Source: a virus (lineage: Duplodnaviria; Heunggongvirae; Uroviricota; Caudoviricetes). Taken from it: a DNA stretch of 64,000 nucleotides. Each line of letters opens with the position of its first letter. The first letter of the stretch is position 1. Shown in pieces: positions 150 to 39,589 of this stretch. The stretch lies in the IMG/VR virus record IMGVR_UViG_3300047567_000058, positions 16,405-80,404 of that record; one strand, 5' to 3'. The notes under the pieces are model-generated. The model was not told the origin of the DNA, searched no databases, and saw only the letters and a program-made list of their open reading frames with translations. Position numbers and translations under genes: made by a program.

Positions 150-353
150 ATGCCGGGAATGGACATCGTCTGGGTCTTATGCGACTTCGTGTATGGGCTG
201 ATCGGCGTAGCCTCGGCCGTGCTGATACCATACAACGTTCTTTACTGGCACGACACATACATGCTGGTAGCGTGCATTCTGCTCGTGCTATGCGGAATCT
301 GGTTCGTGATATCCGCGATTAAGACGATCCGAGACGATCTTCGTAAAAAATAA
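150..353 (+). CDS. small membrane protein (67 aa, two predicted TM helices)
   Basis: From the ORF track. ATG follows the upstream stop directly. Two hydrophobic stretches. The stop is embedded in the A-rich element and is followed by a hairpin. Confidence 0.5.
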   Translation: MPGMDIVWVLCDFVYGLIGVASAVLIPYNVLYWHDTYMLVACILLVLCGIWFVISAIKTIRDDLRKK

Positions 354-969: not shown

Positions 970-1047
970 ATGCATATGCCTCCTTTGTTTCATAAGAATC
1001 ATATATCCTTGATCCTGGCTAAAATACGGGATCCTCAACAATCAATT

Positions 1048-1731
1048 ATGTCAGATCTAAAGATATTGCGTGAGAAATCAGCCAACGAATTGAAGCGGCA
1101 GGCGAACGTCATAATCGGCGTTGCCGCATTCGTAATGTTCATCGTTGCGACGTTCTTGTTTTTCATAGCGATCGCTTCGCATTCTGAGCAGCCGCTGCTG
1201 ATAGCCGGGGCCGTCGTGCTGTTCCTTATAGCGTCAGGCATGATCGTCATGATGATCATAAACAGGCGCGCCGAGGACAAGATAAAGAACAGATTCATGT
1301 CCGAGGTATACGGAGTGGCCAGTTCGAAGGCTACCGAGATAGACGATGTCAGCCCCGAGCAGTTCTCAATAGTGTGCGCGATGATGTTCATCAAGTGCGG
1401 ATACAGAGTTAAGCTTGGGAGCCCTGACTCAATGGAAGGCGCTTCCATAATAGTCAAGAAGCGCGGCATCAGGAGAACAAGGGTGCGCTGCGAATTGGCT
1501 ATAGGGAGAATCAGCCCTGATCTGATAAAGCAATTCGCCATATCAAAGAGATTCCATAGGCATTCAGATCTGATGATCATAACCAATGGGTATTTGATGA
1601 AGCCTTCCAGAGAGCTTGCCGAGCAATATGGAATTAAGGTTATTGAAAGGGATAAGCTTCAGAAAATACTGAAGTCGGCTTCTCTTAAGCCGCTTCCGAG
1701 CAATTCGAAGATTGCAAGAACAGGAAAATAA
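1048..1731 (+). CDS. membrane-anchored protein with a C-terminal Mrr-like restriction-endonuclease (PD-(D/E)xK) domain
   Basis: N-terminal TM helices (VIIGVAAFVMFIVATFLFFIAI; LLIAGAVVLFLIASGMIVMMII). The C-terminal region (FSIVCAMMFIKCGYRV...SMEGASIIVKKRG...RCELAIG...ITNGYL) resembles Mrr_cat. Start taken at the internal ATG at 1048, because the track start at 970 would overlap the divergent gene. Confidence 0.45.
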   Translation: MSDLKILREKSANELKRQANVIIGVAAFVMFIVATFLFFIAIASHSEQPLLIAGAVVLFLIASGMIVMMIINRRAEDKIKNRFMSEVYGVASSKATEIDDVSPEQFSIVCAMMFIKCGYRVKLGSPDSMEGASIIVKKRGIRRTRVRCELAIGRISPDLIKQFAISKRFHRHSDLMIITNGYLMKPSRELAEQYGIKVIERDKLQKILKSASLKPLPSNSKIARTGK

Positions 1732-2648: not shown

Positions 2649-2745
2649 ATGCTAATCCTTCTTTCTCAGAGAAATGATATATCTGCCAATCTGCTAATCA
2701 GCGTTTTCCCCAAGTGAATTTGCAAGCAAGTAACAACCAATTATC

Positions 2746-5277
2746 ATGAAAACACACCAAAATGCAAAGATCGTCGACAGCCGTTCGCAGGGGCTTACGT
2801 CTGAGAAAGCCGCTCAGCTTAAGTCAGATGGATTGGCAAACGTCACCAACAAGAAATGCTCGAAGTCCTATTGGGATATCATCAGGGACAGCGTGTTCAC
2901 ATTCTTCAACGCGTTGCTTGCCGGCATAGCCATATGCTTCCTCGTGTTCGGGGTGGATGACTGGTCGAAATACGGATTCTGCATCAATCTTGTCCTCAAT
3001 ACGGCAATCGGAATCATCCAGGAAATCAGGTCAAAGAAAGCCGTAGAGAAGCTGTCGATAGTGTGCTCATCTAAGGCATCTGTTCGCAGAGACGGGAAGG
3101 AAATAAAAATAAATTCCGACGACATCGTTTTGGGAGACGTCGTCATTCTGAGATCTGGCGATCAGATCCCTGTCGACGGAGACGTCATCGACGGAAGCGC
3201 CGAAGCCAATGAGTCGCTTCTCACCGGAGAGGCCGACGCCATAAAGAAGGAATCCGGGGCTAAGGTTCTTGCCGGGTCGTTCATCATTTCGGGGTCATGC
3301 TCCATCGTGGCTACGGCCGTGGGGCAATCGACTTACGCGTCCGGCATCCAAAACAAAGCCAAGGAATTCAAGAGAGCCAAGTCTGAGCTGATGACCACGA
3401 TCATGTGGCTGCTCAAGGTTCTGGCGTGCATCATCGTCCCGCTCGGATTCGCCCTGGGGCTTAAGCTTTGGCTTACCAACGGGATGCCGGCGGCGTACAC
3501 GACTTCGTTTGAGTCCGACGTCATAATCCCGACAGGGACCATGATGGTCGGCATGATTCCTTCAGGGATGATTCTCCTTACGTCCATAGCGCTTGCCGTC
3601 GGAATAATCAAATTAGCGTCGAAGAAAGCGCTCGTTCAGGACATGTATTCCATCGAGATGCTGGCCAGGGTAGACACCGTCGCGTTCGACAAGACGGGAA
3701 CCCTTACGGACGGGCATATGAAGGTTGATTCCATAATCAGCCTCAGCCGAAAGGTCAAAGACAATCAGCTCGTCGATCTTCTGTCATCTTTCATCGGCTC
3801 ATTCAAGACGAGCAACGCGACGTCAGCCGCTCTGATAGCTCAGTTCGGATCCGTAGGGTCGATGACGGCTCAGGAAGTGCTTGAGTTCTCCAGCGACAGG
3901 AAGACGTCTTCTGCCGGGATGCCTGACGGATTCATTTACGTTTTGGGAGCGCCGGAATATATCACCGGGGATTCTATCATACTTTCAGAATACGCGAAGC
4001 TGGCTTCCAGAGGGCTTCGGGTCGTCTTGTTCGCAAGGCGCCATGGAAGCCTGCAGCCGCAAGGAGAGGACAGATCGGCTGACATCGATCCGCTGGCTCT
4101 CATAGTGCTTAGGGATGGCGTCAGGCCAGCGGTCATCAGCACGATGAAATGGTTCAAAGACAATTCCGTCAGCGTCAAGATCATCTCTGGCGACAATCCA
4201 TCAACCGTGTCGCAGATCGCCAAAGAAGCCGGAGTCCCAGATTGGGACAAGGCGGTTTCTATGGAGGGGATCCGAGATGAGGATATCCCTCAGATGGCGG
4301 CGGATTTCAATGTGTTTGGGCGCGTTAGCCCGGAGCAGAAGGCTAAGATCATCAAGGCTCTTCAGAAGCAAGGCCATAAAGTGGCGTATGCCGGAGACGG
4401 GGTCAATGACGTCATATCTCTGAAGACAGCGGATTGCTCGGTCGCCATGGCCGGAGGGGCGGATGCCGCCAAAGCGGTTTCCAACATCGTTCTCATCGAT
4501 TCTAATTTCGATGATCTTCCGGCTGCTATAGGCGAAGGGCGCAGAGTCGTCAACAACATAACCAGGACTTCAACTTTGTTCCTGATGAAGACTTTCTCGA
4601 TGATGCTTCTTGGGATAATGACGCTGTGCGGATTATTTTATTATTTCCCTCTCGAGATGGAAAATCTTGCCTTGATGGAGACATTCGTCATCGGGATCGC
4701 CTCGTTCTTCCTGTCGGTCGAGCCTTGCCAGGAAAGGCTTTCAGGATCATTCAAACGCAATATCATGGTGCGAGCGATACCGGCCGCGTTGCTGCTTGCC
4801 GGGTCGGTTCTTGTTGGAAAGATATGGCTTTCGGGCGGGCAGACATGGAGCATAGTCGCTCCGACGATGAAAGACAAAACTCTGATCTGCATGCTTTATT
4901 CGATAGCGTCGTTCATGGTTCTGTTCCGCATAAGCGTTCCTATGAACGGATATAGGTCCGGAGTGTTCATCGGCAACATGGCTGGGGCCGTGATATACTC
5001 GATGTTCCTTCCTCTCAGCGCGTTTGGCGGATGCTCTACCAGCCTTTTCAAAATCGCATCCGATGGCGTAATGCATTTATGGGTTATAAAAATAGATGGC
5101 GCGTACTATGACGCGTTCTCAAAGATATTCGATCTCGGAGGAACGCTTAGCGCATTATCCAGCGGGGATTGGCTGATGATTTTGATCAGCGTTCTGGCGA
5201 TGCCTGTCGTGTACTTCACTATGGATAATCTGTTCTCAAGGATTCCGGAAAAACAAAAATATTCACATTCGAAGTGA
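2746..5277 (+). CDS. P-type cation-transporting ATPase (P2/P3-type, Mg2+/Ca2+-like), 843 aa
   Basis: Phosphorylation motif DKTGTLT (AFDKTGTLTDG). Actuator-domain motif TGEA. Hinge motif GDGVNDVISLKTAD. Multiple TM segments. Full length and uninterrupted. Confidence 0.85.
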   Translation: MKTHQNAKIVDSRSQGLTSEKAAQLKSDGLANVTNKKCSKSYWDIIRDSVFTFFNALLAGIAICFLVFGVDDWSKYGFCINLVLNTAIGIIQEIRSKKAVEKLSIVCSSKASVRRDGKEIKINSDDIVLGDVVILRSGDQIPVDGDVIDGSAEANESLLTGEADAIKKESGAKVLAGSFIISGSCSIVATAVGQSTYASGIQNKAKEFKRAKSELMTTIMWLLKVLACIIVPLGFALGLKLWLTNGMPAAYTTSFESDVIIPTGTMMVGMIPSGMILLTSIALAVGIIKLASKKALVQDMYSIEMLARVDTVAFDKTGTLTDGHMKVDSIISLSRKVKDNQLVDLLSSFIGSFKTSNATSAALIAQFGSVGSMTAQEVLEFSSDRKTSSAGMPDGFIYVLGAPEYITGDSIILSEYAKLASRGLRVVLFARRHGSLQPQGEDRSADIDPLALIVLRDGVRPAVISTMKWFKDNSVSVKIISGDNPSTVSQIAKEAGVPDWDKAVSMEGIRDEDIPQMAADFNVFGRVSPEQKAKIIKALQKQGHKVAYAGDGVNDVISLKTADCSVAMAGGADAAKAVSNIVLIDSNFDDLPAAIGEGRRVVNNITRTSTLFLMKTFSMMLLGIMTLCGLFYYFPLEMENLALMETFVIGIASFFLSVEPCQERLSGSFKRNIMVRAIPAALLLAGSVLVGKIWLSGGQTWSIVAPTMKDKTLICMLYSIASFMVLFRISVPMNGYRSGVFIGNMAGAVIYSMFLPLSAFGGCSTSLFKIASDGVMHLWVIKIDGAYYDAFSKIFDLGGTLSALSSGDWLMILISVLAMPVVYFTMDNLFSRIPEKQKYSHSK

Positions 5278-10450: not shown

Positions 10451-13400
10451 ATGTTCGTATCACCGAGTAAGATGAAGTTGGATCGTATCCTTCTAGGGCG
10501 CACGATCAATTTCGACACAGAGAGAAAGATGTACGGAAATCTTGTGGTTCTGGCCACGGATTCTTATGACGACATAGCTTCGGTGATGACTCAATATGCT
10601 GTTTAGGCCTCAGCAGCTTTACTGCATGTACACGCCTCGTGTGGTCCGCCCTTTAAACAGAAAGATCGTTCGCGAGGATCAAGCTGCCGTTTATGCCTCG
10701 CTCAGAGACAAAAGCTCCGGTAGATTAAAAATTGGAAAGCCATTTGTCACATCGTATGCCGAGAAAAATCTGGTGTACGATATGATTCCTGATTTCAAAG
10801 AAACCCTTGCTCTTCGTGAAAACAAGCAGGGATTTGCAAGGTATATCGCGATGAAGGACTTCCTGGAAGAGTTCCTTCCTGAAGCTGTTTCCTCAGTAGG
10901 ATATCAGAAGAATTATTTGATTTTCCCTATTTGCGACTATTCTGACAAACTCGGATCAGTCGCCAAAATGGGATTGTTTGACACAAGCGTTGAAGGACGT
11001 GACCCCTATGTCATTATTCCTTCTTACGCTCAGAAAAGGCCTTGCCGATATGTCCGTCTATAAGATGTTCGACAGGATCATCTTCTATAATCCTAACAAC
11101 GAGGCTGTCGTGGTCATGGATCCGTCAGATCCGACTCTTGAGAAATCGATCAACGACTATCTCCTTAAGATATCGCGTCTCAATAACGCGAATATGGGAG
11201 AGGCCCTAGAAGGAGATGACGTCGATTCCGATGGATCTGATGAGGCTGATGACTCCGACAAGAGCGACGAAGCGAAGGAAAAAATAAAAAATTTCGTATT
11301 CACGTCAGTCTCTAAGTCACTTAAGATCAGAGCTCCTGAGACATTTGACGCCGCCACCAAAGACGAAGGAGACATCGCGGCTGTCGTCGATAAGAAGATC
11401 GACGGATATCTTTCCAAGAAAGAGAATGCCGGAAAGTCCTATGACGATCTAAAGACAACGATCGAAGCGGATCCCGATGTGAAAGCGGCTGCCATTAAGT
11501 ACGTCGAGACCAAGAAGAGCAACAGCCAAAAGCTCAATCAGCTTGCCAAGGGCCTTGAGAAAGAGGCCAAAGTCATAGATGATTTCGAAAAATCGTCTGC
11601 ATCCGATAAAGAAGAGCCGGAAGACAAATCGAAGCAAACTGCCGGAACCGCTGTAAAGCCATCGGTTCTGTCGGCTCTGAAATCCGCGGCGGCTGCGAAA
11701 TATGCCGCTAAAGACGATGATGAAAGCAAGGCTTCTCCTATAGCCGTCGATGCCGAGTCTCTCCTCGATGACAAGGAAATAGACGTCGATGTCGCCAACT
11801 TCGACAGCCGCGTTAGGCATAGCTCATTGATGGCGCTTGACGAAGACTATAACACCAAGCAGGCCAAGAAAGACCTGATGAGCATCCTCACCCATTTCTC
11901 AAACTCGCAGTTCCTTCCGATCGCGATGGACAGAATCAACATCGTTGACTCGAGCGATGACTTCAATAAGAAGATGACCCTTACGGCTCATTACAAAGCT
12001 GACGACGGATCGTCGCTTGGATTCACGCTCGACATCCCTGAGGTGATCGATGGCAGATTCATCTTCATCAACGGAAACAAGATGTTCATTCGAGAAGCAG
12101 CTTCTCCGTCTTCCTATCGTCAAGACCAAGCCAAACGTCGTCGAGATCTCGACATCATACAGCAAGATCACGGTTGAACGCACCAATGAGAAGGTTTCGC
12201 GCAGAAACGTCCGTCTTCTGAAGATGATCAAAACCGCCGAGCCTTCTGCCAAGGGATGGACTGTCCTTTGGGGAGACAATTCTGTCCATAACGACAGATA
12301 CGTCAGCGATTTCGAATATGAAGAGCTAGCGTCTAGCATCTCTTCGATTGACGCCCCGAGATACGATATCGACCTCGATCGTCAGCGCATCATGAGCAAG
12401 ATATCCGCGATGGACTTCCCAGACGGATTCTTCAAAGACGATTCGATGGACACCCCTATAGCGATCGAGAAGAACTCATCCAACGTCATTCACATCAAGC
12501 CTGACGGAGCTGTCTATCTGGCCATTCCGACTAAAGACGGAGGATCTATCGCGTCTGACAACAAAGCTGCCGATTGCATCCAGGCATTCGTTCTGGCTGC
12601 ATTGGGGCTGCAGAATGCGGATATCCCGTCTATCGGAAAGAGCTTCGTCTATTCGAGAGCCAAGATGATCGAGCAGTTCTATCCGATCTTCTCTCTGTGC
12701 GGATTCATGGAAGGAATCACCAGCGTTTTGAGAAGATACGGAGTCAAATACACGCTTTCAGACAAGCGCGACAGAACGCTTCTTTCCAATTACGTCGAGA
12801 TCCGTTTCAGGGATAAATATTTTTATTTCCTGGACAATCTCAAGAACACGATGCTTCTTAACGTCCTTCGCTTGATGGAGACCGACCAATACGACTTCAG
12901 AGACTTTGACACTGAGGATCCGTATGTCAATTTCTTCGTCAATGTCCTTGGCTACAACTCGTATGCCAGAAACACCATCAAGCTTCATCTGTCGGCGATG
13001 GTCGATCCCTATTACCTACGACGTTCAGAAAGATCTTAAGCAGCCTACGGATATCGTCGGGATGCTCTTATTCGCCAACACGCTTCTGACGACCAATACC
13101 CTGCCGATCGCTAAACGACGCCAAGAAACTACCGCATCAGAGGAAACGAAGAGATATACGCTGTTCTGTACAAAGTCCTTGCCGACGCATACAAGAACTA
13201 TCAGAACGGCCGCCTTAATGGGCACAGAGGAGGGCTTGATCTTCCTAAGAACGCCCTCATCAAGGCCCTGACCAACCAGGTAAACGTCAATCCGGCAAGC
13301 GTATTGAACCCGGTGCTTGAGCTTGAAAGCCTTTCAAACTGCACGCAAAGGATTCAACGGCGTCAACCTGGACAAGGCGTACACCATGAAGATGCGCGCT

Positions 13401-14792
13401 TATGATCCTAGCATGATCGGATTCCTGTCAGGAAACGACACTCAGTTCGGCGGAACGGCCGGAATGAGCCGATCGATTTCATATGATCCTAAGATCTCGA
13501 CGATCCGCGGATACATCCCAGACGTCGATAAGAGCAGTCTGTCGGCTACGAACATCCTAAGCCCTGCCGAGATGCTGGCATCGTTCGTGTCGGCTCAGTC
13601 GGATGCGCCTCGCTCAGCGATGCAGATTTCGCAGACTAAGCACACGATGCCCGTCGTCAAAGCCCATAAGCAGCTTGTCGGATCAGGAATAAATAAGACG
13701 ATGGCGTTCATGATATCCGATGACTTCTGCTTCAAAGCCAAGAAGAACGGAGTAATCAAGACAATCGACACCAATAAGCACATCGCCATTCTGGCATATG
13801 ACGATGGGACGAACGACGCGATCGATCTCGGCGACGTTCTCGTTAAGAACTCGAACAGCGGATTCTTCATCAAAGAGCACTTCCTCATCAAATACAGCCA
13901 AGGCGAGAGATTCAATAAAGGCGACGTCATTGCCTACAACCCGTCTTATTTCAGCGGAAAGGGAAAGGACATCGATTATATGCCTGGAACGCTTGCCAAG
14001 GTTGCGCTTGCCGCATCGGATGGCGCGTTTGAGGACTCGACGATGGTCGATGAGACTCTGTCAAACGAATGCGCGTCTTACTTCACGATGATGACATCTG
14101 TGGCGCTTGGCCCCAATGCGACGATCTACAGCACGGTTCATGCCGGAGACAAGGTTGAATCTGAGGATACCCTTCTGGAATACTCCAAGAGCTATCTCGA
14201 TCCATCGACTGCCGAATACATGAACAACATGAAAGATGTCTTGGGCGCCAATGCCGTGAACGAGATATCACGCGATAAGATCCTTTCTAGATACTCCGGA
14301 AGCGTCGTTTCTGTGAAGGTGTATTACAATATGCCTTTGGCTGAGCTCAGCCCGACCCTCAGAAAGCTCATATCGGAATACAAAGGCATCCAGCTTGACA
14401 GATCTGAGTTCCTCACCAAATACAACGTCCCTCATGGCGGAAGCGTGCATATAGACACGACCAACCAGATGGGAACCGACAGCTCAGGAAAGTCCAAGGT
14501 CAACGGAAGCCAGTATCAAGGCGTTCTCATCGAATACTACGTTGAGATACTCGACCCGATCGGCCCTGGAGACAAGATCACTTACACGAGCGCTCTCAAG
14601 GGAGTCGTGTCTAAGGTGTTTGCCGCAGGAGAATCTCCTACGTCGGAATATCATAGCGAGCTTCCATGCAACGCAGTATGCACTCCTACAGGAATATTAG
14701 GACGCATGACATCTGACTTCTTCTCATACCTCTACTCGAACAAAGTACTCGTTGAGCTAGGGCGGATGATAAAAGCCATCTGGGACTACTGA
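10451..14792 (+). CDS. homologue of multisubunit RNA polymerase beta subunit (RpoB-like, about 1440 aa), broken into at least 7 frame segments by single-base indels
   Basis: GRFIFINGNKMFI...QLLRLPIV matches the beta motif GTFIINGxERVIVSQLHRSPGV. SDAPRSAMQISQTKHTMPV matches NMQRQAVPL. PGDKITYTSALKGVVSKV matches the GDKxAGRHGNKGVVSK active-site region. Segments: 10451-10606, 10596-11063, 10978-12177, 12050-13039, about 13040-13112, about 13115-13330, 13317-14792. Confidence 0.65.
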
Positions 14793-24022: not shown

Positions 24023-24154
24023 TCAGTCTTTCTGGACTTCGGGGTCCGGGCTCATCGCCAGATCCATGGCGTCCTCGAATTCCTGCGGGTCGATCGTGGG
24101 ATCCTGAGATTCCGCTTCCTGGCCCATCGACTTCAGCTTGTCTTGGTCGTTCAT
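24023..24154 (-). CDS. possible small acidic protein (43 aa); its ATG overlaps the nrdD stop (ATGA)
   Basis: MNDQDKLKSMGQEAESQDPTIDPQEFEDAMDLAMSPDPEVQKD*. Confidence 0.2.
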   Translation of the reverse strand: MNDQDKLKSMGQEAESQDPTIDPQEFEDAMDLAMSPDPEVQKD

Positions 24155-27100
24155 AATCGATTCCTCACGCGTTGGAGCGCGATTTTATCCATCCGGCGAT
24201 CTCCGAGGCGTTTCTGTAGACGTCGAAACGAGGCCCCATCCGGGACGATCATCGTCGGGGCGGCGGTGATGCCGAACGCGTTGACCTGGTCGAGATGCGT
24301 CGACGCGTCGATGTTGTCGTACTTGATCCCGGCTTTGTCGAGCAGCATCTTCGCCATCTTGCAGTTCGGGCACGTCGGGTTGGTGAACAGCATCAGATGA
24401 TCGACTTTGGGCGCCTCGGCGGAAATATTTTTATTTTCCAGGGAGCAGGCGTTGCATCCGTCATGGACTTCCTCTTTCGAGGAATCGTATTCCTTGCGGT
24501 CATGGAACTCCTGCATCTTGCCGGCGTTCCAGTTCTTGAGCGGGCGGTAGTATCCGGTGATGCGGCTGTAGACCTCGGTCTCCTTGCCGCAGATCGGGCA
24601 CTTCCATTTCTCGCCGACGATGTAGCCGTGGTCGGGGCAGATGGAATAGGTCGGCGACATGGTGAAGTACGGCAGCTTGTAGTTCTCCGCGATCTTGCGG
24701 ACGAGCCTCATGCACGAATGCCAGTCGGGCAGACGCTGCCCGAGGAAGGCGTGGAAGACGGTACCGGAGGTGTATAGGGTCTGGAAGCGGTCCTCGACGT
24801 CAAGCGCGCTGAACATGTCGTCGGTGTATCCGACGGGGAGGTGCGAGCTGTTGGTGTAGTAAGGCGTCTCGCCGGATTTGCCGGCGGTGATGATGTCGGG
24901 ATACATTTCCTTGTCGTGCTTGGCGAGGCGGAAGCAGTTGTGCACCAGCACCGCGTCGTCAACGCCGCCGCTGATGAAGAAGTTGTGGTTGCCTTCGACT
25001 TCGAGATCGTAGACGTCTTCCCTCTCGGTGAGGTATTCGATCTTGACGATCTGATGGTTTGGAAGCAGGCCGGCATGCTTCAGGCGCGATTTGACGAGCG
25101 AGTAAGTGTAAGGCTCTCCGAGCTCTTTGGCGATTTCGCCGATGCTCTTGTTTTCCTTCCACTTGGCGATTATGGCGTCAGTCGAGCATTCAGGCATGTA
25201 TCTCGAATACTGCTCGAAGCTCTTTTTCTTATTCCCTTCAGACATCTTTCTGCGGGTGTCTTCGGATGCCATGTTCTCAAGGAACTTAGGATACCATTCG
25301 TCTTTGGTTTCCCTCTTCGTCTCGGAAATAAGCTCTTTTGATTTTTCGGTGTGATGCTTGCCGAAGAATGGGTTGGCGGAGCCGTCTACGCATCTTACAA
25401 AATTACGGCCTTCGTCATGCTCATGCAGCCGGCGGTGATCGGCATCCGACATTATCTCAAGGTTGTCTTTGGCGTTGTTGGTCTTGTCGAAATCCTTATG
25501 ATGGACTACGAATCCGTCTGGGATCTTGCCATAGTAATATTCAGCTAGAAGACGATGCATCGGGAAAGATCCTTTATTTTTGCCAAGTACGCATTCGACA
25601 TTGCGATACGTTTCTCCATATGCTTTAGAATTCTTAGTATAAACATGGCACGCGAATAATCTGTCTCCGACTTTTAAGGATCCGGCTTCGACGTAATCGA
25701 TCCAGCATTTGCGACTGGGACCGCATCCGGTGACGAACCGCTTCGCCATCTTATGGTTAGGCGTGACTTTGACGCTGTCGCCCATTGGAGAAGGTGATCT
25801 TCATCACTTCGGCGTCTTTCTTCGTCTTCCAGCAGTCGACGAGCTTCTTGAACTCGACTGAGTTGGTTTCGGCGTTGAATGACATGATGCCGATATTTTT
25901 ATTTTTATCGGCGATGATATCGTTGACGGTCATACGGCCTTTATCAGTCCAAACATTGGTGTCTCCTGAAACGCACGTTGACTCCGCCGGCGTCGCTTCA
26001 AGGTTGAAAAGTGTCGATGGATACTGGACTTGGTAGTCAGATAGCCGGTTGCGCATGTGATTGAGGACCTCGACGGTGAAGTCCTGGGCGTCCTTGTGCG
26101 TGAGGTCGTCTTTCAGCCATTTGGCGTTGAGACAGGCTTCGTTCATGCCGACGAGGCCGATCGTCGAGAAATGGTTCTTGAACGCGGTTTCGCCCAGATA
26201 GCGCTTGGTGTACGGATAGAGGCCACGGTTATAGAGGTCGGTGATTGTTCTTGCGCTTGATCTCAAGCGAGCGGGCGGCGATGTCCATCATGTGGTCGAG
26301 CCGGGCGTAGAAGTCGTCTTTGTCGGCGGCGAGGTAGCCGATGCGCGGCATGTTGATGGTGACGACGCCCGATACTGCCAGTGGATTCTCCGGCTCCGAA
26401 GAACCCGCCGTTGCGCTTGCGCAGTTCGCGAAGATCGAGGCGAAGACGACAGTTGTGAGTCATGAGACCTGATGCCAAAGCGAAAACATGATCGTCGCTG
26501 TCTATCTCCAAGCAGTAAAGAAAATCACTTGATGCGTCATTGGTTTTCTCTATCGACACTATCTTGTAATAATTGTAGGAATCGTCTTGATCGAAAAGCT
26601 CGCCATAGCGCTCGCGATCCGGGAAGTCAATTCTGTAATTCGGCTTGTCGGATAAGCGACTTTCTCTGTTGTCGACGTAGTTTGACAAAGCTTTGTGCCC
26701 CATGGATGCCAAAAGTTTCATCACATCGTTTTTCATCGTTTCCGATGAAGTGTATATCCTCTTTTTCTCCTTCGACCCATCGCTGGCTCTCAAACCCGAT
26801 ATGAATCCTTCTTTGAATTCGTTCGAAGCATTGAAACAACGATTGGAAAGCTTCTTCGTCAAAGCATCGCCATCGATGTATTCCGACACAATGGCGAACG
26901 GGTTCTTATCGACTCTGACATATTCCACTTTTTCGGAAACCGTCGTTTTCACCGGATAGCCTACTCTGTTCCAGAAAGCCGTGAGGCGCGAAACCGTGTC
27001 TTGATCGACATCGACATTAAGAGAATAAACAACTGCTCCTTCGTCGTGACTTCCGTCTCCTGCGTAAGCACCTATCGCAAAACCGAGGTCGGAATCACCG

Positions 27101-29969
27101 AGCCTTTCCGTCTCAATCGGGGTCTTGTTGAAAGGAAGCCAGTCGCCGACTTCGAGATCGCTCGCTTTCAACGTTCCTCTATCCTTTGTCGGCTGAAGAT
27201 GGTTTTCGCCCATTTTGACGGTCGTTCCGTTCGAAAGGACGATTTTGAAAACCGGTGTCATCGGCATCTGAACCGGATGGCCTGACACCCATTTATGCCC
27301 ATTCCAGAAAAGATAGTTCGTTTTCTTGAGATTGTATCCATCATAAAGAGTTCCTATCTTTCTGACGACGATTCCATCACGCGAGTTTTTGACGAGAATC
27401 TCGGTGTCTGACGTCAAAGGGCACATACTCCTGCAATCTTGAGGATTCATCGAACTATTTATGTAGTTTGAGAAATACGGGATGCCGTATTTGGCCGCCA
27501 TCTCAAACAGCAAACGGTTGTTCTCGGTATCGGACCAGTCGAAGCCTTTGGTGATGGAGTAAGTCGGAATCGGGTATTGGAAGCCGCGCCCATTGGCATC
27601 GCCTTCGATCATCGTTTCGATGAAGGCCTTGTTGACCATGTCGGCTTCTTTTCTGGCATTCGCCATACGTGAAGTCCTGCATCTTGCCTCCGACAACGGC
27701 AGGCAGGTTCTTCAGATCGTCAGGAACGACCCAGTCGAGCGTGACGTTCGTGAATGGCGCTTGGCATTGTCCTGAAATGAAAACGCATCCGTTCTTTCTG
27801 AAAATGGCTGTTCCGGCGTCGTCGTTCGGACACCATACAAGACCGTCATATTGAATGGCTTCCCTATGTTTTGGCTGGATGTTTTTGACGTCATGAACGC
27901 GGACGTAGTTCGCTTTACTCGTCTTTTTCTTGAAACTCAAAAATCCGGCTCTCAATGCTATTTCTTGAAGCCTGTCCGCTATTTCGTCATTGTCGTACTG
28001 AAGTTTGAATTTTTCGAAATCTCCGTCGAAACTCGACCACGTTCTAAGGAACAGCTCCGATTGCCTTCTGCTCATTTTGACGAACTTGTCATCAATGGCT
28101 TTTTTGGTTCCGCCAACGAGTTCGAAAATCTTTCTTGCTGAGTCACCGAAGAAGACGTATTTATTTACTGGAGTATCAAACCCGCCTTTTACTTCGCAAA
28201 GCGAAAAAGCTAGAGAAAGCGAATTTGCCACATTTGCGATGTCGGCGTTTCCTGGCCTTTTCGGAGATTTGTATATCGTTATTTTGTGAATCGATCCGTT
28301 TCTTACGTCTATGCTTCCATCGGTATAGACCATCGCCGCCAGTTTTATCTCGTCATCGCTCAGCCCGCATTCAGGCAAATCGTTGCCCGAAAAAGATGCT
28401 GGGAGGTAATAAGAAGTCTTGACACTGAAAATGTCAGACGAATGTTTGATTTCGTATTCGTTCAAATTGAATTTTTTGACAAGAATACGGTGCTCAGGTG
28501 TGACGGTTTGCTCGTATCCGGCTCCAAGATAGCGGTGCATCTCGCCTTTGTACGGTTTCACGACGACTTCGTTGACCTTTTTGGTCGTCAGCGTCCCATT
28601 GTCCCAAACGTAAATGTCATCGCCTTTTTTAAGCTGATCGTATTTCTTCCATCCACCGGTCGACAGCACTTCGGTGTCCGTGTCGACACAGCCCCATCTG
28701 GACGGGGTGTTGACACCGAAGATGAAGCTCTGAATGGCTTGCTTAACTTCTTTGTATGACAGATTGTCCTTCTTGACGAACGGGGCCAGGTACGTGTCAA
28801 AGCTCGAGAACGCCTGAGCACCCGACCATTCATTTTGTAGGCAATTTCTCGCACAGATACTGGTGTCTGATGATTCCGAATCGGTTACGAAGAATGCGTG
28901 AAAATCGTTATGGACGGTTCCGCAATAAACATCGGATGTCTGATTGATAATTCTCTTAGATACGATTTTCATACACTCTCCGGTGTCTTTGCAAGTGAAT
29001 TTGTACACGTACATAACCTTTGAGTTGTATTGAAGGACGTCGTCGTCTTCGGTTAAATCCTGCGCCTCAACCCATCCACGGTTAAGCGTATAGAATTTAT
29101 GGTCAAGAGTGCATTTGATCTTATGGCCGTCTTCGGTCGTGAGCTCAATGAGCTGACTAACGGTTCTCGTCTTATGCAAGTTATCCATCTTCGACGCGAC
29201 GTATTTGCCGGTGTTGGGATCGAATGACCTGACCATGAATTCTGTCTTTCCTGAATCGAGCATCTCGCGGATGCTGTGATTAGTCCCATCGGCGAACACG
29301 ATTCTGGTATCGTCGGTGAAGCAGCCCAAGAAATTGACCATCTGGTTGCAGAGAGTCGAAAGATGGCTAGCCGGGGTAGACGCGATCTTGCCCGGGACTC
29401 CGCCGAGGCCTTCGTTGATCAACTGCTTGAGCGACCAGCCTGCGCAATAACCGTTCAATAAGCTAAGGTCATGCAGGTGAAGATCCGCGTTTCTGTGCGC
29501 GTCGGCGATTTCCTTGTCGTAGATGTCGTTGAGCCAATAGTTGGCAGTGACCGCTCCGTTGTTCGAGAGCACGAGCCCTCCGAGCGAGAAGTTGACGGTT
29601 GCGTTTTCCTTGACGCGCCAGTCGTTCTGGCCGAGGTAGTCGTCGACGAGCTTCCCGTAGTTCAGCCCGTTTCTCATCTGGGCGTGCTTCTCGCGGTATC
29701 TGGCGTATGCCAAAGCGGTCTGCTTGTGGCCCGTGTCGATGAGCGCGAGCTCGACCCCGTCCTGGATGTCTTCGATCCCGACGGAATTATTTTTTTATTT
29801 TCCCGGAGAACTCGTCCAGGGCCTTCTCGGCGACGATGCTGGCGTTCTTCTCGCCTTCCGCGTCATGGGTCTCCTGGCAGGCGCGCGCAATGGCGCGTTC
29901 GATCTTCTTGATATCGAAATCCTCGACGCTATCGTCTCTTTTGACTACTTTCAGCTCGGCTGTTTCCAT
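24151..29969 (-). CDS. nrdD: anaerobic (class III) ribonucleoside-triphosphate reductase NrdD with N-terminal ATP cone, four inteins and a fused C-terminal glutaredoxin-like domain
   Basis: ATP cone (VVKRDDSVEDFDIKKIERAI). NrdD core blocks (LYNRGLYPYTKRYLG, NHFSTIGLVGMNEA, TGSIGVVTINMPRIG). Glycyl-radical C-terminus RITGYYRP with a CPICG zinc ribbon, then a CPNC thioredoxin-fold domain. The reading frame passes through track ORFs 29787-29969, 27503-29713, 26263-27696, about 26270-26370, 25757-26266 and 24151-25785. Confidence 0.85.
24937..25975 (-). mobile_element. nrdD intein 4: about 330 aa with an HNH homing endonuclease
   Basis: Starts CVSGDTNVWTD. Block B is GDSVKVTPNH. HNH motif HHKDFDKTNNAKDNLEIMSDADHRRLH. 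Block F is DVYDLEVEGNHNFFISGG. Ends AVLVHN, followed by Cys. Confidence 0.6.
26452..27423 (-). mobile_element. nrdD intein 3: about 324 aa with a LAGLIDADG homing endonuclease
   Basis: Starts CPLTSDTEILV. GFAIGAYAGDGSH and EGFISGLRASDGS match LAGLIDADG. Block F is FLYCLEIDSDDHVFALASG. Ends LMTHN, followed by Cys. Confidence 0.6.
27767..28690 (-). mobile_element. nrdD intein 2: about 308 aa with a LAGLIDADG-type homing-endonuclease domain
   Basis: Starts CVDTDTEVL. LAAMVYTDGSI and LRAGFLSF match LAGLIDADG. Ends ...NGCVFISGQ (C-terminal Gln), followed by Cys. Confidence 0.5.
28844..29323 (-). mobile_element. nrdD intein 1: mini-intein of about 160 aa with no endonuclease domain
   Basis: Starts CFTDDTRIVFADG. 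Block F is DVYCGTVHNDFHAFFV. Ends ...SICARN, followed by extein Cys. Confidence 0.55.
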
Positions 29970-31331: not shown

Positions 31332-32639
31332 TCAGGCTCCTGCCGAGCTGGAGCTGGTGCTCGAAGAGCTCGACGCTCCGTTGGCGAGAAGCGATCCGAT
31401 GAGGGCGCTGAGCTGATCGGAGGTGAGAACTTCCGGGAGCTTGCCGTCCCAGGTATCATAGAAGATGATGCCAAGGATAAGATTGGCGCACTTGGAATAA
31501 GTGAGCGTCTCCTTGGACGATTCGACCGGCTTGAACGATGTGACGTAGCCGTCCTTGTCGACGACGATGTCGGCGTCGGCCACTCCGTTGACGGAGCAGT
31601 ACAGCCGGTTGATCATCGACTCAACGGATTTGATGTAAGCCGCGGAAGCGTCTCCTGCGGCCTTGCCTTTGACGGTGGTCGCATAGGCGTCTGCGTCGGC
31701 GAGCGTTCTCTGGACGGCGGCGTCTGACGCGGCTTTGATGCCGGCGGCCTGGGCCTCTTCCTGAGCGATCTCGATCTGCTTCTTCGCCTCGGCTTCCTTC
31801 TTCAGGATCGCCTCGATCTCGGATCCGGCGTCGATGTCGTCAAGCGACGCATTGGTGACGGTGACGTAGTATTGCTCTTTCATGGCGACGATGAATTTCG
31901 TCTGGAATTGGGAGTTGGCGTCGTTGAACTTCGTCGAAAGAAGCTCGAAGATGGTGTATTGGGGCGTGACTTCCTTCATCACGTTCTTGATGATCGACTT
32001 GATCGCGTCCTCCGGCATCTTGCTCGCTTGCGTGATGCGATAGAACGACTGGGCGTTGTCTTTGGTGATGTGATAGATCAGGCTGATCTCAAGGCTGGCG
32101 TATTGGCCATCCATCGTCTGGCAGGTTAGGCTGTCGTTCTTCGTCTCGTTGCTCTCGAGATGAACGACGACGTTGGTGGTTGGGATCGTCGTGACGTGCT
32201 GGAAGATAGACTTGGAATGGAATCCTTCGCCATAAGTCCAGTCCTGGATGCCTCCGTTCAGCTCATCGTAAACGATGCCGACCTCATTCGGGCCGACCTT
32301 GGTGAACGAATTGCAGAGCGGGATGATCCCGATGAGTAGCCAGACGAACGCGAGGCCGAAATATTTTTTATTTCCCTTCGGGGCGTTCTTCTTGGCGGCG
32401 GCGGAATTCTTGTATCCTTTGTAGAACTTGACGAAATCGGCTGTGTATTTGTTGCCGTATGTCTTGATGGGATTGCCGGGATAGACCTTGGCGTATTCCT
32501 CTTCGGCCATGGACACGAGCGTGTTGCCGCTGGAATCCTCGGCGTCTTCTTTAGAACGATTGTACAGATAAATGGCTGCGATCAGCCCGGCGACCAATAA
32601 CAGGACGCCGAACACGATCGTGCAGATCAATGCTGTCAT
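31332..32639 (-). CDS. SPFH/band-7 (HflK/C-, stomatin-like) membrane protein, 435 aa
   Basis: Two N-terminal TM segments. SPFH core VGPNEVGIVYDELNGGIQDW...VVVHLESNETKNDSLTCQTMDGQYASLEISLIYHI. Coiled-coil/Ala-rich C-terminus. Confidence 0.6.
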   Translation of the reverse strand: MTALICTIVFGVLLLVAGLIAAIYLYNRSKEDAEDSSGNTLVSMAEEEYAKVYPGNPIKTYGNKYTADFVKFYKGYKNSAAAKKNAPKGNKKYFGLAFVWLLIGIIPLCNSFTKVGPNEVGIVYDELNGGIQDWTYGEGFHSKSIFQHVTTIPTTNVVVHLESNETKNDSLTCQTMDGQYASLEISLIYHITKDNAQSFYRITQASKMPEDAIKSIIKNVMKEVTPQYTIFELLSTKFNDANSQFQTKFIVAMKEQYYVTVTNASLDDIDAGSEIEAILKKEAEAKKQIEIAQEEAQAAGIKAASDAAVQRTLADADAYATTVKGKAAGDASAAYIKSVESMINRLYCSVNGVADADIVVDKDGYVTSFKPVESSKETLTYSKCANLILGIIFYDTWDGKLPEVLTSDQLSALIGSLLANGASSSSSTSSSSAGA

Positions 32640-32716
32640 AATTTTAAACTCCTTTGAGCCAATGGCTCATTCGGCTGACTCGCCGTTGCGGGCCCAGCCA
32701 TCGTTGTCTTCTTTCA

Positions 32717-33178
32717 TCAATCGACGTTGACGATTAATGCGTACATCTTTCCATTGCGTGGATCAGAGAAATAGAATTCGGATCCAGCGCAATAGGCCAT
32801 ATAGGTGTATTCGTCCATGTTGGCTTTCGATGCCGCCGACATGTCAAGTACGCAGACATCAACGCAATTGTCTCCGCCGCTGGTGTGCTCGCATTCGATG
32901 CACATGTTTTCGCCAAATTGAACTTTGCCCTCGTTTCCTTCGTCATAAAGGCTGCCATAAGTAGTAGGATTGGCAAGGCAGTCATCTATGAATCCGGTTA
33001 GAGTCTTGTTTCCATCGACTACGGTGAATGCTTCCTTGGAGCTGCATCCTGACGAATTCATGATTTTATCGACGATGTCTTGCATGGCTACGCTTGGATC
33101 GTGATAGTACTTTCCGTTTATTGCGAAACTGGTTCCATCGCGCAAAGTAACAGCATTGCTTGATTTGCTGATATTCAC
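32717..33178 (-). CDS. hypothetical Cys-rich protein (153 aa)
   Basis: ORF track. Confidence 0.45.
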   Translation of the reverse strand: MNISKSSNAVTLRDGTSFAINGKYYHDPSVAMQDIVDKIMNSSGCSSKEAFTVVDGNKTLTGFIDDCLANPTTYGSLYDEGNEGKVQFGENMCIECEHTSGGDNCVDVCVLDMSAASKANMDEYTYMAYCAGSEFYFSDPRNGKMYALIVNVD

Positions 33179-33196
33179 AAGTTGCTCCTATTCACT

Positions 33197-33235
33197 GGAA
33201 AATAAAATCCGCTGAGATGATTGGTCTCAGCGGAT
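33197..33235 (-). terminator. intrinsic terminator: hairpin atccgctgaga-ccaatcat-ctcagcggat then TTTATTTTCC (minus strand)
   Basis: Perfect 11-bp stem. Confidence 0.75.
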
Positions 33236-33241
33236 CTTTTA

Positions 33242-34486
33242 TCAGATGATGAACCACTCCGCCATATGCTCGGAGAGATTCCCGAAATCGACTTGGGCCA
33301 CGATCGCCCCAGACGGGGTCATCGCGATCGGGGCGTCTTTGACGAACGACAGGCAGTACGCGTCTTTGAACGTGCCGATCCATGCTTTGAGAGCGCGCAT
33401 ATTCGTGCTCGAGAAATGCTCTGTCGGCGTGACGGCGAAGTCATAGTCTCCGTCGGCCACTCCGTCTGAGCTGCCATTGCCGATGAGGAAACGCTGGGCA
33501 TCCTTGCTGCCGTTGCTGGCGATCGATCCTACGCGGATCATGTCGCTGTCAAGGCTCGAGGAGACCATGAGCGCCTGCGGATCGCCGAACTCGCTGACGA
33601 AAGTTCTGCCGTAAATATTCGGGGTTTCGCGCACGGCGAGATTGAGCTCGGCCGCCATTCTCTCAGGATCGGAAACGACGCAGACCCACTTCTCTTCGTT
33701 GGCGTCTTGGTCGCATTGGATGCTGACGAAGGCACCAGGGGTGCTGTCATAGGTCATGAGGCTGTTTCCGTCGTCGCTGACGTCGAACGTGTTGCCGAAC
33801 GACGGGATGTACATATGGGCGTCGCCGTCCTTGATGTACAGAGCGAAATAGGCCTCGGTGTTCGTTTCGTCTTTGCTGTCGGACGCCATGATGAGCACGA
33901 AGCAATCGGTGTGAAGGATCGGCGTGGCGATGTCATAATCGTCGATGATGCTGCGCGCGTTCTTCAGGCCATGGGTGTCTTTGACGCTCTTGAGAGCGAC
34001 CGAAAGCTTCTCGGGCGAATCCTTGGTCGGGAGGCTTACCCCGCAATATTGCGAGAGCATCCCGAGGACGTCGTCATATCGGTCGCAATGGACGTAATCG
34101 ATGGCGTCTAGATTAAGGCAGGCGATCGAAAGGCTCGGGACGCCGAGCTTGTCTTTCGCTTCCTGGACGTCTCCGAGGGCGGCTTCCGTCTTCGAAAGAT
34201 CGCTGCTGGAGAATCTGATCGGGAACGAATCGATCGGCCCGCGGTTGTCCAAAAGAGCTTCGAAGATCGGATTGTGATCCGGGATGTCGATCTTGCCGCT
34301 TTGCTCAGCCTGGGACTCAGCCAAGGACTGAACCGGATCGTCGCTGAGAGCGGCTTTCTTCAAGGCTTCTTGATCTCCGGCGAGCTTATCGATCTTCTTC
34401 GATGTCTCATCATCGTCGGATGACTTGCTGTCGTCATCCTTGGTTTTGATGTTCTTGAAATTGATTCCGTTGACTTTGATTGGCAT
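33242..34486 (-). CDS. hypothetical protein (414 aa)
   Basis: ATG (MPIKV) after RBS ggaaggagg; M7 of the track ORF. Confidence 0.5.
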   Translation of the reverse strand: MPIKVNGINFKNIKTKDDDSKSSDDDETSKKIDKLAGDQEALKKAALSDDPVQSLAESQAEQSGKIDIPDHNPIFEALLDNRGPIDSFPIRFSSSDLSKTEAALGDVQEAKDKLGVPSLSIACLNLDAIDYVHCDRYDDVLGMLSQYCGVSLPTKDSPEKLSVALKSVKDTHGLKNARSIIDDYDIATPILHTDCFVLIMASDSKDETNTEAYFALYIKDGDAHMYIPSFGNTFDVSDDGNSLMTYDSTPGAFVSIQCDQDANEEKWVCVVSDPERMAAELNLAVRETPNIYGRTFVSEFGDPQALMVSSSLDSDMIRVGSIASNGSKDAQRFLIGNGSSDGVADGDYDFAVTPTEHFSSTNMRALKAWIGTFKDAYCLSFVKDAPIAMTPSGAIVAQVDFGNLSEHMAEWFII

Positions 34487-34544
34487 AATAGTGCCTCCTT
34501 CCATAAGCCCGGGACCGGAATGGCCCGATCCCGGATTTATTTAT

Positions 34545-35234
34545 TTATTTCCCAGACTGCTTGGCTTTGCGCTCGGCATTCTGGACGTATCGCTTGCGGA
34601 GCTTAGACACGTCGTCGCTGTTGAAGACGAGCGGCTTGCCATACTCCATGACCGCGTCGGCCAAACCGTATTTGACGGTCTCTTCGGCGGACATGTTGTT
34701 GTCGCGCTGGGTGTCGGCGTTGATCTGCTCATAGGTCTTGCCGGAGTTGTCCGCCAAGAGATTGAGGCATGCGTCATTGAGCATGTGCATCATCTTCTGG
34801 CTGGCATCGGCGTCGAGGACGGTCTCCATTTCGTTCTGATGATACGTGCGGCCCTGATGGATCAGGACGAACCCGTGTTTCTGAACGAGCCGGTAATCGC
34901 CGCTCGAGAAGATGACCGCCGCCATCGAGGCGCAGAAGCCTTTGCAGACCGTGATGATCGGCGCTTGGATCTCCATCATCTGATCGACGATGGCGAGCCC
35001 TGCCGTGATATCGCCTCCGCCCGACATGATGTCGAGCTCGATAGGCTTCTTTGGATCTTTCTTGCTGAGGTTCTTGAGCTCCGCGATGACGAGGCTGGCG
35101 GATTGCTCCGACACCTCGCCGTAAAGCAGAACAACACGATCCTTATACAAGGAAGTCGCGATAGAATCTTGGAATGTGACGGCCTGCTGTTCAGGCTCGT
35201 ATCCTTCCATAACTGGCTTTGACATAACGATCAC
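34545..35234 (-). CDS. clpP: ClpP-family serine protease subunit
   Basis: Catalytic Ser in CKGFCASMAAVIF, His in VLIHQG, GGGDITAGLAIVDQM. Stop overlaps the upstream gene by 4 nt. Confidence 0.75.
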   Translation of the reverse strand: MIVMSKPVMEGYEPEQQAVTFQDSIATSLYKDRVVLLYGEVSEQSASLVIAELKNLSKKDPKKPIELDIMSGGGDITAGLAIVDQMMEIQAPIITVCKGFCASMAAVIFSSGDYRLVQKHGFVLIHQGRTYHQNEMETVLDADASQKMMHMLNDACLNLLADNSGKTYEQINADTQRDNNMSAEETVKYGLADAVMEYGKPLVFNSDDVSKLRKRYVQNAERKAKQSGK

Positions 35235-37525: not shown

Positions 37526-37552
37526 AAAGATTGTGCCGTCCTTTCAGGTGGC

Positions 37553-38005
37553 TCAGATGCCGTCGTCTCCATCGAAATTGCCAAGATGGAAATTGGCTGT
37601 GTCATCTTGATTCTGCTGAGCTGCCGCTTTGGCTTCGTCTTCCTGGGCTTTCTTTTCAGCCTCGGTGATCTCGGCGTCGGTGAGCGCATGCATCCTCTGG
37701 ATGATATCGTTGAGTTTGGCATCCGCCGCATCGGCGGTCAGTTCATTGCCATCCTCGTCTGTGGCCGATCCGTTCTCAATGTCGCATACCCCGGTGGCCA
37801 ATGCCCCGAGGTCAGAGATTCTCACGGCGATCTTCCCGTATTCGGAAGTCAGGCCCTGAGACTGAGCGTATTTCATCAAGTCTCCAGTTAATTCGGACAT
37901 CTTTCCGGCGATGGCGACTTTAGCGTCGGTGATCTTTTGCTCGAAGTTTCCATTGTTGTCTGGAAGCTCGTAATCCTTCGATTTGTCAGATGGTGCGAAT
38001 GGCAT
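37553..38005 (-). CDS. hypothetical acidic protein (150 aa)
   Basis: ORF track; RBS aaaggagg. Confidence 0.45.
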   Translation of the reverse strand: MPFAPSDKSKDYELPDNNGNFEQKITDAKVAIAGKMSELTGDLMKYAQSQGLTSEYGKIAVRISDLGALATGVCDIENGSATDEDGNELTADAADAKLNDIIQRMHALTDAEITEAEKKAQEDEAKAAAQQNQDDTANFHLGNFDGDDGI

Positions 38006-38018
38006 AATTGTGCCTCCT

Positions 38019-38183
38019 TTAGTCTTTTATTTTTTCGACAAGCGGATCATCATCGACGACATCGTTGGATTCTGCATGAGCCAGGTCATCGTTCGTAACC
38101 AGGTTTTTTGCTTGACTGGGGTTGTTCGCACGCACATAAACTGTTTTTGTCTGTGTGTAATATGTAATTGCGTACATTGGCAT
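38019..38183 (-). CDS. small protein (54 aa, MPMYAITYYTQTKTVYVRANNPSQAKNLVTNDDLAHAESNDVVDDDPLVEKIKD)
   Basis: Strong RBS aggagg 9 nt upstream of the ATG. Preceded by the conserved leader hairpin. Its stop TAA overlaps the RBS of the next gene. Confidence 0.45.
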   Translation of the reverse strand: MPMYAITYYTQTKTVYVRANNPSQAKNLVTNDDLAHAESNDVVDDDPLVEKIKD

Positions 38184-38190
38184 TGCTATC

Positions 38191-38832: not shown

Positions 38833-38837
38833 AAAAT

Positions 38838-39008: not shown

Positions 39009-39015
39009 AAATTTT

Positions 39016-39227: not shown

Positions 39228-39228
39228 A

Positions 39229-39582: not shown

Positions 39583-39589
39583 AAGTTTT

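Follow-up and report, generated by a model that had tools for sequence, protein, structure and literature searches.

What is a membrane ion pump doing in the genome of a bacteriophage, does it truly belong there, and which ion might it carry across the membrane of its host? These questions are posed by a 64,000-nucleotide stretch of a virus assigned to the Caudoviricetes (IMG/VR record IMGVR_UViG_3300047567_000058, positions 16,405 to 80,404; hereafter the window, whose own numbering is used below), near the start of which lies an open reading frame (ORF) for a P-type ATPase of 843 amino acids. The gene is intact and resides in jumbo phages, and homology places its product in the CtpE-like, or P6, family of pumps. 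The explanation that best accommodates the evidence as a whole, and which we consider probable, is that the phage encodes a functional pump of this family that operates in the host membrane.

An intact P-type ATPase

The gene and the parts of its product that bear on catalysis and fold are as follows (TM, transmembrane helix).

2746..5277 (+): P-type ATPase gene, 843 aa, CtpE-like/P6 family, in the subclade that lacks the TM4 glutamate
3223..3234 (+): dephosphorylation motif of the actuator domain, T160-G-E-A163, from sequence and homolog alignment
3688..3702 (+): phosphorylation motif, D315-K-T-G-T319, from sequence and homolog alignment
4393..4410 (+): hinge and Mg-binding motif, G550-D-G-V-N-D555, from sequence and homolog alignment
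5014..5169 (+): enlarged extracytoplasmic loop between TM9 and TM10, residues 757-808, with a beta-hairpin module at 765-789 in the model

Translation begins at an ATG and runs through 843 codons with zero internal stops. The product passes TIGR01494, the generic P-type model of NCBIfam, at 234.7 bits against a cutoff of 62.3, and matches the Pfam domains E1-E2_ATPase (E 7e-41) and HAD Hydrolase (E 2e-21). Conservation of motifs was judged in alignments of 17 and 120 pump homologs, across which the catalytic motifs are invariant or nearly so: T160-G-E162, D315-KTGT (invariant in the 120), F381-S-S-x-R-K386 (FSSDRK), G401-APE, S481-GDN, SPEQK, K532 and G550-DGVND555. A confident AlphaFold2 model computed from the 120-sequence alignment (pLDDT 86, pTM 0.81) places ten helices in the membrane and shows TM4 to be unwound at I271-G274, the type II topology of ten helices and a fourth unwound at a proline. 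The length that the protein has beyond family members of ~790-800 aa lies in the TM9-TM10 loop. A preliminary description of the locus, made from its sequence, had proposed a full-length cation ATPase with an intact phosphorylation site, actuator and hinge and about ten membrane segments; the ORF, the domain models, the motifs DKTGT, TGE and GDGVND and the ten modelled helices all agree with it.

A resident of jumbo-phage genomes

The same description named host contamination or a chimeric assembly as the finding that would overturn it, and a mis-binned bacterial fragment belongs to the same class of explanation. There are some grounds for suspicion: the nearest cellular homologs of the pump are ordinary chromosomal genes, its GenBank 'phage' matches (at most 38% identity) fall in unannotated, multi-contig records of host-like appearance, and the window contains indel errors. 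Against this, at least 11 contigs, drawn from separate JGI and Logan samples, encode the exact 843-aa protein, and its neighbourhood does not differ between them; the longest class of contig carrying the identical pump is 0.2-1 Mb (>200 kb), and across eight of these contigs the pump is identical at the DNA level. Two diverged relatives of the protein (P0002, 73% identity; P0003, 71%) retain the synteny, and all three lineages have in common the order Mrr-like nuclease, minus-strand gene of ~180 aa, pump and RNA polymerase (RNAP) beta subunit. Phage genes flank the pump on both sides. Composition is continuous through the gene: its GC content (0.517), GC content at third codon positions (0.646) and correlation of relative synonymous codon usage with the remainder (0.72) lie within the range of the other genes of the window, relative to which there is no break in GC or codon usage at the pump. 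No cellular protein exceeds 43% identity to it. Contamination and chimerism are thus excluded for practical purposes, on independent contigs, diverged synteny and composition alike, and we assign them a negligible probability.

The indels are a matter of sequence quality elsewhere in the window. Relative to eight short-read contigs of the same phage there are 11 single-base indels, none of them inside the pump; their positions include 6133, 7995, 9774, 10593, 10995, 12089, 13007, 13099, 13121 and 13345. They frameshift the 312-aa gene downstream of the pump and split the RNAP beta gene into several ORFs. The window therefore probably carries errors of the long-read type, and its ORF calls call for caution.

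Which phage is this? The RNAP beta gene 5 kb 3' of the pump (phrog_3148, E 3.5e-142) marks the locus as that of a jumbo phage; its closest cultured relatives are those of AR9, PBS1 and Goe21, jumbo phages of Bacillus, and of Listeria and Staphylococcus jumbo phages, at 31-37% identity. Gene content in the window is of the jumbo-phage type as well, with a family-B DNA polymerase, a head-tail joining/virion structural protein, RNase H, RecJ and topoisomerase I, alongside an anaerobic-type NrdD gene interrupted by intein and HNH elements, ClpP, a Lon-like protease, MoxR/VWA genes and a TROVE-like protein. Shine-Dalgarno (SD) motifs precede 22 of the 35 window ORFs (63%, against a background of 14%), a frequency that fits a host in the Bacillota. 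A megablast of 25 kb against GenBank phages gave no match, a scan of IMG/VR with the pump protein found no relative, and no tRNA genes were found in the window. Among the three lineages the ratio of nonsynonymous to synonymous substitution in the pump is 0.13-0.23 (synonymous divergence 1.1-1.6), values which indicate that it is under strong purifying selection. We take the pump gene to be inherited vertically in a jumbo phage that is uncultured, distantly related to phages of the AR9/PBS1 type and most likely a phage of gut Bacillota.

Placement in the CtpE-like family

If the gene belongs to the phage, to which branch of the P-type ATPases does its product belong? The preliminary description called it a Mg2+/Ca2+-type pump, and this part finds no support. 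Every subtype model tested fell below its cutoff, leaving the generic P-type model as the only one passed: in bits against cutoff, the pump scores 248 against 346 for heavy-metal pumps, 245 against 615.5 for H+ pumps (TIGR01647), 120 against 528 for KdpB, 198 against 798 for PMR1, 195 against 507 for PMCA, 172 against 703 for SERCA, and 174 against 611 (TIGR01524) and 152 against 975 (NF011702) for Mg pumps. At E <=0.01 there is no match to Pfam Cation_ATPase_N, Cation_ATPase_C or Cation_ATPase. The Ca-coordinating glutamate of TM4 and the Asn/Asp of TM6 are also missing.

Homology points elsewhere. Below the 71-73% of the two diverged phage relatives, identity falls directly to ~43%, in proteins of ~800 aa from Clostridia-type bacteria, one of which is encoded between leuS, pgi and valS, near spoIVA. 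A scan of species-representative genomes found relatives at 32-41% identity in Clostridia, Christensenellaceae, Bacilli, Mollicutes/phytoplasma and Coriobacteriia, and also in Streptomyces, Rothia, Streptococcus oralis, Enterococcus, Saccharibacteria and Chloroflexi. These taxa match the list of CtpE orthologs given by Gupta et al. (PMC5615198), several to the species; Streptomyces, Rothia, S. oralis, Enterococcus, phytoplasma and Saccharibacteria are common to both. The JGI annotation of P0003 reads 'cation-transporting P-type ATPase E'. To CtpE-like proteins the pump is 32-43% identical, compared with 17-27% for P2 and P3 pumps.

The P6 family proposed by Palmgren in 2023 (PMC10654040) has as its defining features a PEGL motif in TM4 and the absence of Asp from TM6. 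Like CtpE of Mycobacterium smegmatis and M. tuberculosis (PMC5615198, PMC10654040), an ~800-aa protein with 10 TM and no large regulatory termini, the pump has ten helices and no regulatory extensions in its 843 aa, against a family norm of ~790-800 aa. Both lack Asp at the canonical TM6 position, where Thr646 of the pump aligns to the Asp of LMCA1 (D800 in SERCA), and both have the TM5 lysine. They differ in that CtpE, taken here from its published description, reads VPEGL in TM4, whereas the pump reads IPSGM, has a TM6 Glu and an enlarged TM9-TM10 loop, and is encoded by a phage. On this homology the pump is placed in the CtpE-like/P6 family (TCDB 3.A.3.23), with CtpE itself represented by its description in the literature.

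Searches against the Protein Data Bank (PDB) were also considered for assigning a subtype. Fold comparison with Foldseek was discarded for that purpose, since P2A, P2B, P2C, P3A and P3B structures all match equally (E ~1e-35 to 1e-38, 17-21% identity).

A displaced carboxylate at the predicted ion site

Three features define the predicted ion site.

3556..3570 (+): ion-site motif I271-P-S-G-M275, located where TM4 is unwound, in place of the PEGL of Ca pumps and CtpE
4588..4590 (+): TM5 Lys615, in gapless alignment with Lys794 of the non-gastric H+,K+-ATPase
4678..4680 (+): TM6 Glu645, the sole membrane carboxylate of the subclade, which covaries with loss of the TM4 Glu

Aligned to LMCA1, the 'IPSGM' of the pump stands opposite 'IPEAL', and its TM6 'ALMET' opposite 'NLVND'. 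Lys615 is conserved in every sequence compared except one (L092), which has Arg. The TM5 segment has as its best PDB match the non-gastric H+,K+-ATPase ATP12A, in which K615 corresponds to Lys794 (TLTKN), and entries for the K794A/S mutants score below the wild type against this segment.

Across the family, the position of the carboxylate varies by clade. Actinobacterial, streptococcal, enterococcal and lactobacillar relatives have [IV]PEGL together with S, N or G at position 645, the gut Clostridia/Bacilli subclade nearest to the phage pump has P[S/A]G[M/L] together with Glu, and most members with PQGL have Asn or Asp. The TM4 Glu and the TM6 Glu/Asp are largely mutually exclusive across CtpE-like proteins, and members of the family thus largely appear to carry a single membrane carboxylate, in TM4 or in TM6. 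A carboxylate is missing from both positions in Collinsella (PQGL/N) and in several members from Bacilli and phages (PCGM/N or S).

In the gastric H+,K+-ATPase, Lys791 forms a salt bridge with Glu820 of TM6 that blocks site I and enforces transport of one ion (PMC6706254). From the coincidence of Lys615 with this lysine we infer, by analogy, that the phage protein may be a single-site pump of low charge stoichiometry.

Mechanism and transported ion

During infection, the pump would be inserted into the cytoplasmic membrane of the host. There, ATP would phosphorylate D315 and the TGE loop would dephosphorylate it. The unwound TM4 (IPSGM), Lys615 and Glu645 would together make up a single central site, through which the cycle would drive a cation or a proton. 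The analysis establishes what the protein is, that its gene is intact, resides in a phage and is under selection, and where it falls among the families; insertion, transport, the action of such a site and any benefit to the phage are predictions, and a remodelling of the host's ion balance, as the preliminary description put forward, is plausible.

Several observations weigh against this explanation. The actuator motif reads TGEA where over 90% of homologs read TGES, and A163 is not a sequencing error, because the gene is identical in eight independent contigs. The gene itself has no SD motif ahead of its ATG (window 2725-2748), unlike most ORFs of the window, and a sigma-70 scan turned up nothing convincing for it, nor was a promoter in its orientation found. 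IPSGM departs from the [IV]PEGL of the P6 definition, as does the nearest subclade with P[S/A/C]G[M/L]. The link to CtpE was drawn from taxa, motifs, source annotation and published descriptions, and solved structures separate no subtypes, being 17-21% identical to the pump in P2, P3A and P3B alike. Finally, the proximity of S273, K615 and E645 is read from alignment to solved pumps.

For the transported ion we lean, with low confidence, towards a proton or a monovalent cation, which by analogy we rank somewhat above Ca2+; in a rough division, Ca2+ and all remaining ions have like shares of what is left, and the leading candidates themselves fall short of an even chance. The preference arises because the residue linked to Ca2+ in CtpE is missing and because a lone carboxylate with a lysine resembles the H+,K+-ATPases and the P3A H+-ATPases. 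A more specific proposal, which we offer as speculative, is that the TM5-Lys/TM6-Glu pair makes this a single-site pump for H+, or for H+ and a monovalent cation, and not for Ca2+, serving jumbo phages of fermentative gut Bacillota; over a long infection it would then keep up the membrane potential, the pH of the cytoplasm or K+. Were this so, it would be the first virus-encoded P6-type pump, and P6 subclades would differ in substrate, with the shift of the carboxylate from TM4 to TM6 as the marker.

Uptake of Ca2+ in the manner of mycobacterial CtpE is a doubtful alternative, of about the same standing as that proposal. Homology and taxon distribution put the two proteins in the same family, of which CtpE is the only characterised member, so that its Ca2+ uptake is the only functional precedent (PMC5615198). 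The Glu of VPEGL, from which the CtpE authors inferred Ca2+ specificity, is nevertheless missing here, and a carboxylate beside a lysine would make a poor site for a divalent ion. If luminal Ca2+ is plentiful, as we assume, ATP-driven uptake would also seem needless. A conventional pump, whether a Ca2+ exporter (P2A/P2B) or a Mg2+ importer (MgtA, P3B), fares worse and is very unlikely. LMCA1 of Listeria, a Ca2+-ATPase, is the top PDB match by sequence (E 1e-47), Ca-type pumps do exist in phages, and the best viral fold matches are Ca and Mg pumps of giant viruses; the sequence nevertheless largely refutes it, since all Ca and Mg equivalog models reach 22-39% of their cutoffs, the three Cation_ATPase domains are absent, Ser replaces the TM4 Glu, Glu645 and Thr646 occupy the positions of SERCA T799 and D800, and identity is 17-21% to P2/P3 structures, compared with 32-43% to CtpE-like proteins.

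Perhaps, instead, the protein is retained for something other than vectorial transport, as an uncoupled ATPase, a sensor or 'transceptor', or a membrane factor in superinfection exclusion or lysis timing. The ion site offers few ligands (one carboxylate), some phage-borne relatives have no membrane carboxylate at these positions (PCGM/S in P0007 and P0034; P[S/P]GM/N in P0021 and P0025), the actuator motif is TGEA, and the clade-specific extracytoplasmic loop module could serve as an interaction surface. Yet carboxylate-poor sites also occur in chromosomal genes of Bacilli (P0148), and are thus a trait of the family rather than decay in phages; strong purifying selection acts on all catalytic residues; and P4 and P5 pumps transport without such membrane carboxylates. 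We regard a non-transporting role as improbable.

Related pumps in other phages

The CtpE-like pump of the window is not an isolated case. Related pumps at 38-42% identity lie in at least four other phage contexts.

340-kb contig of 30% GC: pump next to a phage RNAP beta gene (phrog_3015, E 3e-64) and a TROVE-like gene
Contigs with a virion structural protein directly 5' of the related pump
Contig with a T4-type RNA ligase/Pnkp, a dCMP deaminase and a RecJ-like gene near the related pump
201-kb contig: T4 Gp23-type capsid gene 6.4 kb from the related pump

PHROGs already holds a family of P-type 'ATPase' proteins that matches the pump (phrog_12316, E 5e-85). The enlarged TM9-TM10 loop is common to the window clade and these phage pumps, and is also found in pumps of ~877 aa that include P0148, from an ordinary chromosome of uncultured gut Bacilli. 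In a neighbour-joining tree of 63 taxa, built after profile matches had been added, a bootstrap of 100% unites the low-GC phage pumps with those of Bacilli, and phage and cellular sequences interleave within this clade; the window clade stands apart on a long branch of its own (100%), whose attachment to the big-loop group has 54%, and monophyly of all phage pumps has 0%. This interleaving and the lack of phage monophyly indicate that jumbo phages acquired such pumps more than once. A single acquisition, which a tree of 97 taxa (92% bootstrap) and the shared loop had suggested, was rejected as an effect of sparse sampling, the loop being chromosomal too. The acquisition by the window clade is judged to be old from its identity of at most 43% to any cellular protein.

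Relation to known pumps

How atypical, then, is such a gene for a virus? The preliminary description thought it so, and this holds in part, as Ca-type P-type ATPases are already on record from gut phages and chloroviruses. The Jug phages and 85 other gut phages encode highly transcribed 'calcium-translocating' P-type ATPases, undetected in phages before (Sci Adv 2026, PMC12880540; preprint August 2025, PMC12363816); among the papers searched, none beyond that report links P-type ATPases to jumbo phages. Jug phages have genomes of 360-402 kb and 27-30% GC and infect Bacteroides and Phocaeicola, and their pumps were chosen by four Pfam domains, including Cation_ATPase_N and Cation_ATPase_C (PMC12880540). 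The pump of the window, with E1-E2_ATPase and Hydrolase but none of the three Cation_ATPase domains, would probably be missed by such a four-domain filter. In both cases the pump is an auxiliary gene of gut jumbo phages proposed to change host ion homeostasis. Jug pumps, however, are of type P2A, with a Ca site like that of LMCA1 and SERCA and nearest relatives in Bacteroides and Phocaeicola, and are co-transcribed with an upstream gene of 77-91 aa, whereas the window has different neighbours and a P6-like pump in an AR9-like phage of Bacillota type; its ~50% GC and different gene order indicate that it is not a Jug phage.

Likeness to the H+,K+-ATPases (ATP4A, Lys791; ATP12A, Lys794) lies in the identical position of the TM5 lysine and in a TM6 glutamate as its possible partner, a pair that in those enzymes blocks site I and yields a single-site electroneutral pump (PMC6706254). 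The phage pump differs from them in having ~18% identity, no beta subunit, no TM4 Glu and Met619 at the equivalent of the TM5 Glu795, and its TM6 Glu stands at the equivalent of SERCA T799 where theirs stands at that of N796; the resemblance is one of analogy, not of membership. The P3A H+-ATPases (Pma1, AHA2) give the best full-length match among subtype hidden Markov models (TIGR01647, in one stretch, residues 52-631), the best PDB alignments in a single stretch and, in Pma1 (9ugb), the top Foldseek match. They and the pump each have one TM6 carboxylate and a basic residue in TM5, which in AHA2 is presumably Arg655, but the pump scores 245 bits where the cutoff is 615, is 19% identical to them and has no autoinhibitory terminus. 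Pumps of chloroviruses and other giant viruses, the only viral fold matches in BFVD, are full-length P-type ATPases like that of the window, from viruses of eukaryotes, of the P2 Ca or Mg type and 12-20% identical to it.

The general phenomenon is thus known; what is new is the family, the architecture of the ion site, the host phylum and the recurrence. Primary ion pumps of phages were recognised only in 2025-26, and then only as canonical Ca2+ exporters in Bacteroides phages. Our results suggest that a second, mechanistically different and poorly understood P-type ATPase family has been recruited several times by jumbo phages of another host phylum and kept under strong selection. Very large phages would then seem to have a repeated need for control over the membrane energetics or ion content of the host. 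With its carboxylate in TM4 or TM6 by clade, beside a conserved lysine, the P6 family is also a natural experiment, and the shift bears on the open question posed by Palmgren of what sets substrate and direction in P6 pumps.

Neighbouring genes and expression signals

The following genes lie around the pump.

970..1731 (+): membrane-anchored Mrr-like nuclease with 2 N-terminal TM helices and an Mrr_cat domain; syntenic in three lineages, 56-65% identity
2109..2648 (-): divergent 179-aa gene, syntenic in all three phage lineages, 29-33% identity
5315..6254 (+): downstream gene, of 312 aa where contigs are free of errors, here cut short by the indel at 6133
10452..14792 (+): multisubunit jumbo-phage RNAP beta, 1445 aa in error-free contigs, here fragmented by indels

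The nuclease, separated from the pump by two genes, is always two genes 5' of it in the relatives (L009:1548-2228 and L012:3060-3779). The preliminary description had set the pump beside this nuclease 'and other membrane proteins'; the plus-strand nuclease is confirmed and has two TM helices, and the rest is weakly true, there being one further membrane protein nearby, of 67 aa with two TM (150..353), and no TM segment by hydropathy in the direct neighbours of the pump (110, 179 and 312 aa). Among the three lineages the pump is conserved at 70-73% and its neighbours at 56-65%, at about 30% or not at all. The 312-aa gene, which begins 37 nt past the pump with a strong SD motif (GGAGGAG), was considered as a conserved partner and rejected, as it has no similarity between lineages. 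PADLOC models run against the pump and its neighbours gave no defence-system match, the Mrr domain alone resembling the nuclease domain of ZorD.

A conserved upstream motif, ATGATATATC, was examined as a promoter of the pump and rejected, its orientation and spacing fitting the divergent minus-strand gene. The 10-mer ATSATATATC has five sites on the plus strand of the window (998, 2674, 9955, 43237 and 51144) against 0.34 expected, and none of 100 shuffles reaches five, for a pattern picked post hoc. All its sites are intergenic or at the start of a gene, and in each of the three lineages one is kept in the interval from the ~180-aa gene to the pump (L009:2849 and L012:4356 in the relatives). 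Read on the minus strand it becomes GATATAT[G/C]AT, followed after ~13 nt by AGGAGG and then by the start codon of minus-strand genes; judged by this arrangement it is probably a phage promoter.

Other observations in the window and in sequence collections

Elsewhere in the window, NrdD (24151-29713, minus strand) is split by intein splicing domains and HNH endonucleases, with one ORF that has a thioredoxin-like domain. A cluster on the minus strand at 31332-43169 comprises an SPFH/Band_7 protein, ClpP and a Lon-like AAA protease of 764 aa, together with a MoxR-type AAA ATPase adjoining a VWA-like (DUF2201) protein; the 340-kb phage, too, has an SPFH gene close to its pump (L095:5665-7215). 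The TROVE/Ro60-like protein (48979-50604, minus strand; DUF2828 and DUF7788; 'RNA-binding protein' in PHROGs, E 2e-126) is 36% identical to its counterpart in that unrelated jumbo phage of 30% GC (L095:13397-14887), in which the gene lies 0.8 kb 3' of the homologous pump. In the public collections, GenBank 'phage' records OR846587-OR848668, PQ520177 and others, under names such as 'Listeria phage LM 4-11-1', 'Listeria phage LM 4-14-1' and 'Enterococcus phage Efs 1-1-1', are unannotated and multi-contig and contain host-typical P-type ATPases and topoisomerases; they look like host contamination in a phage collection.

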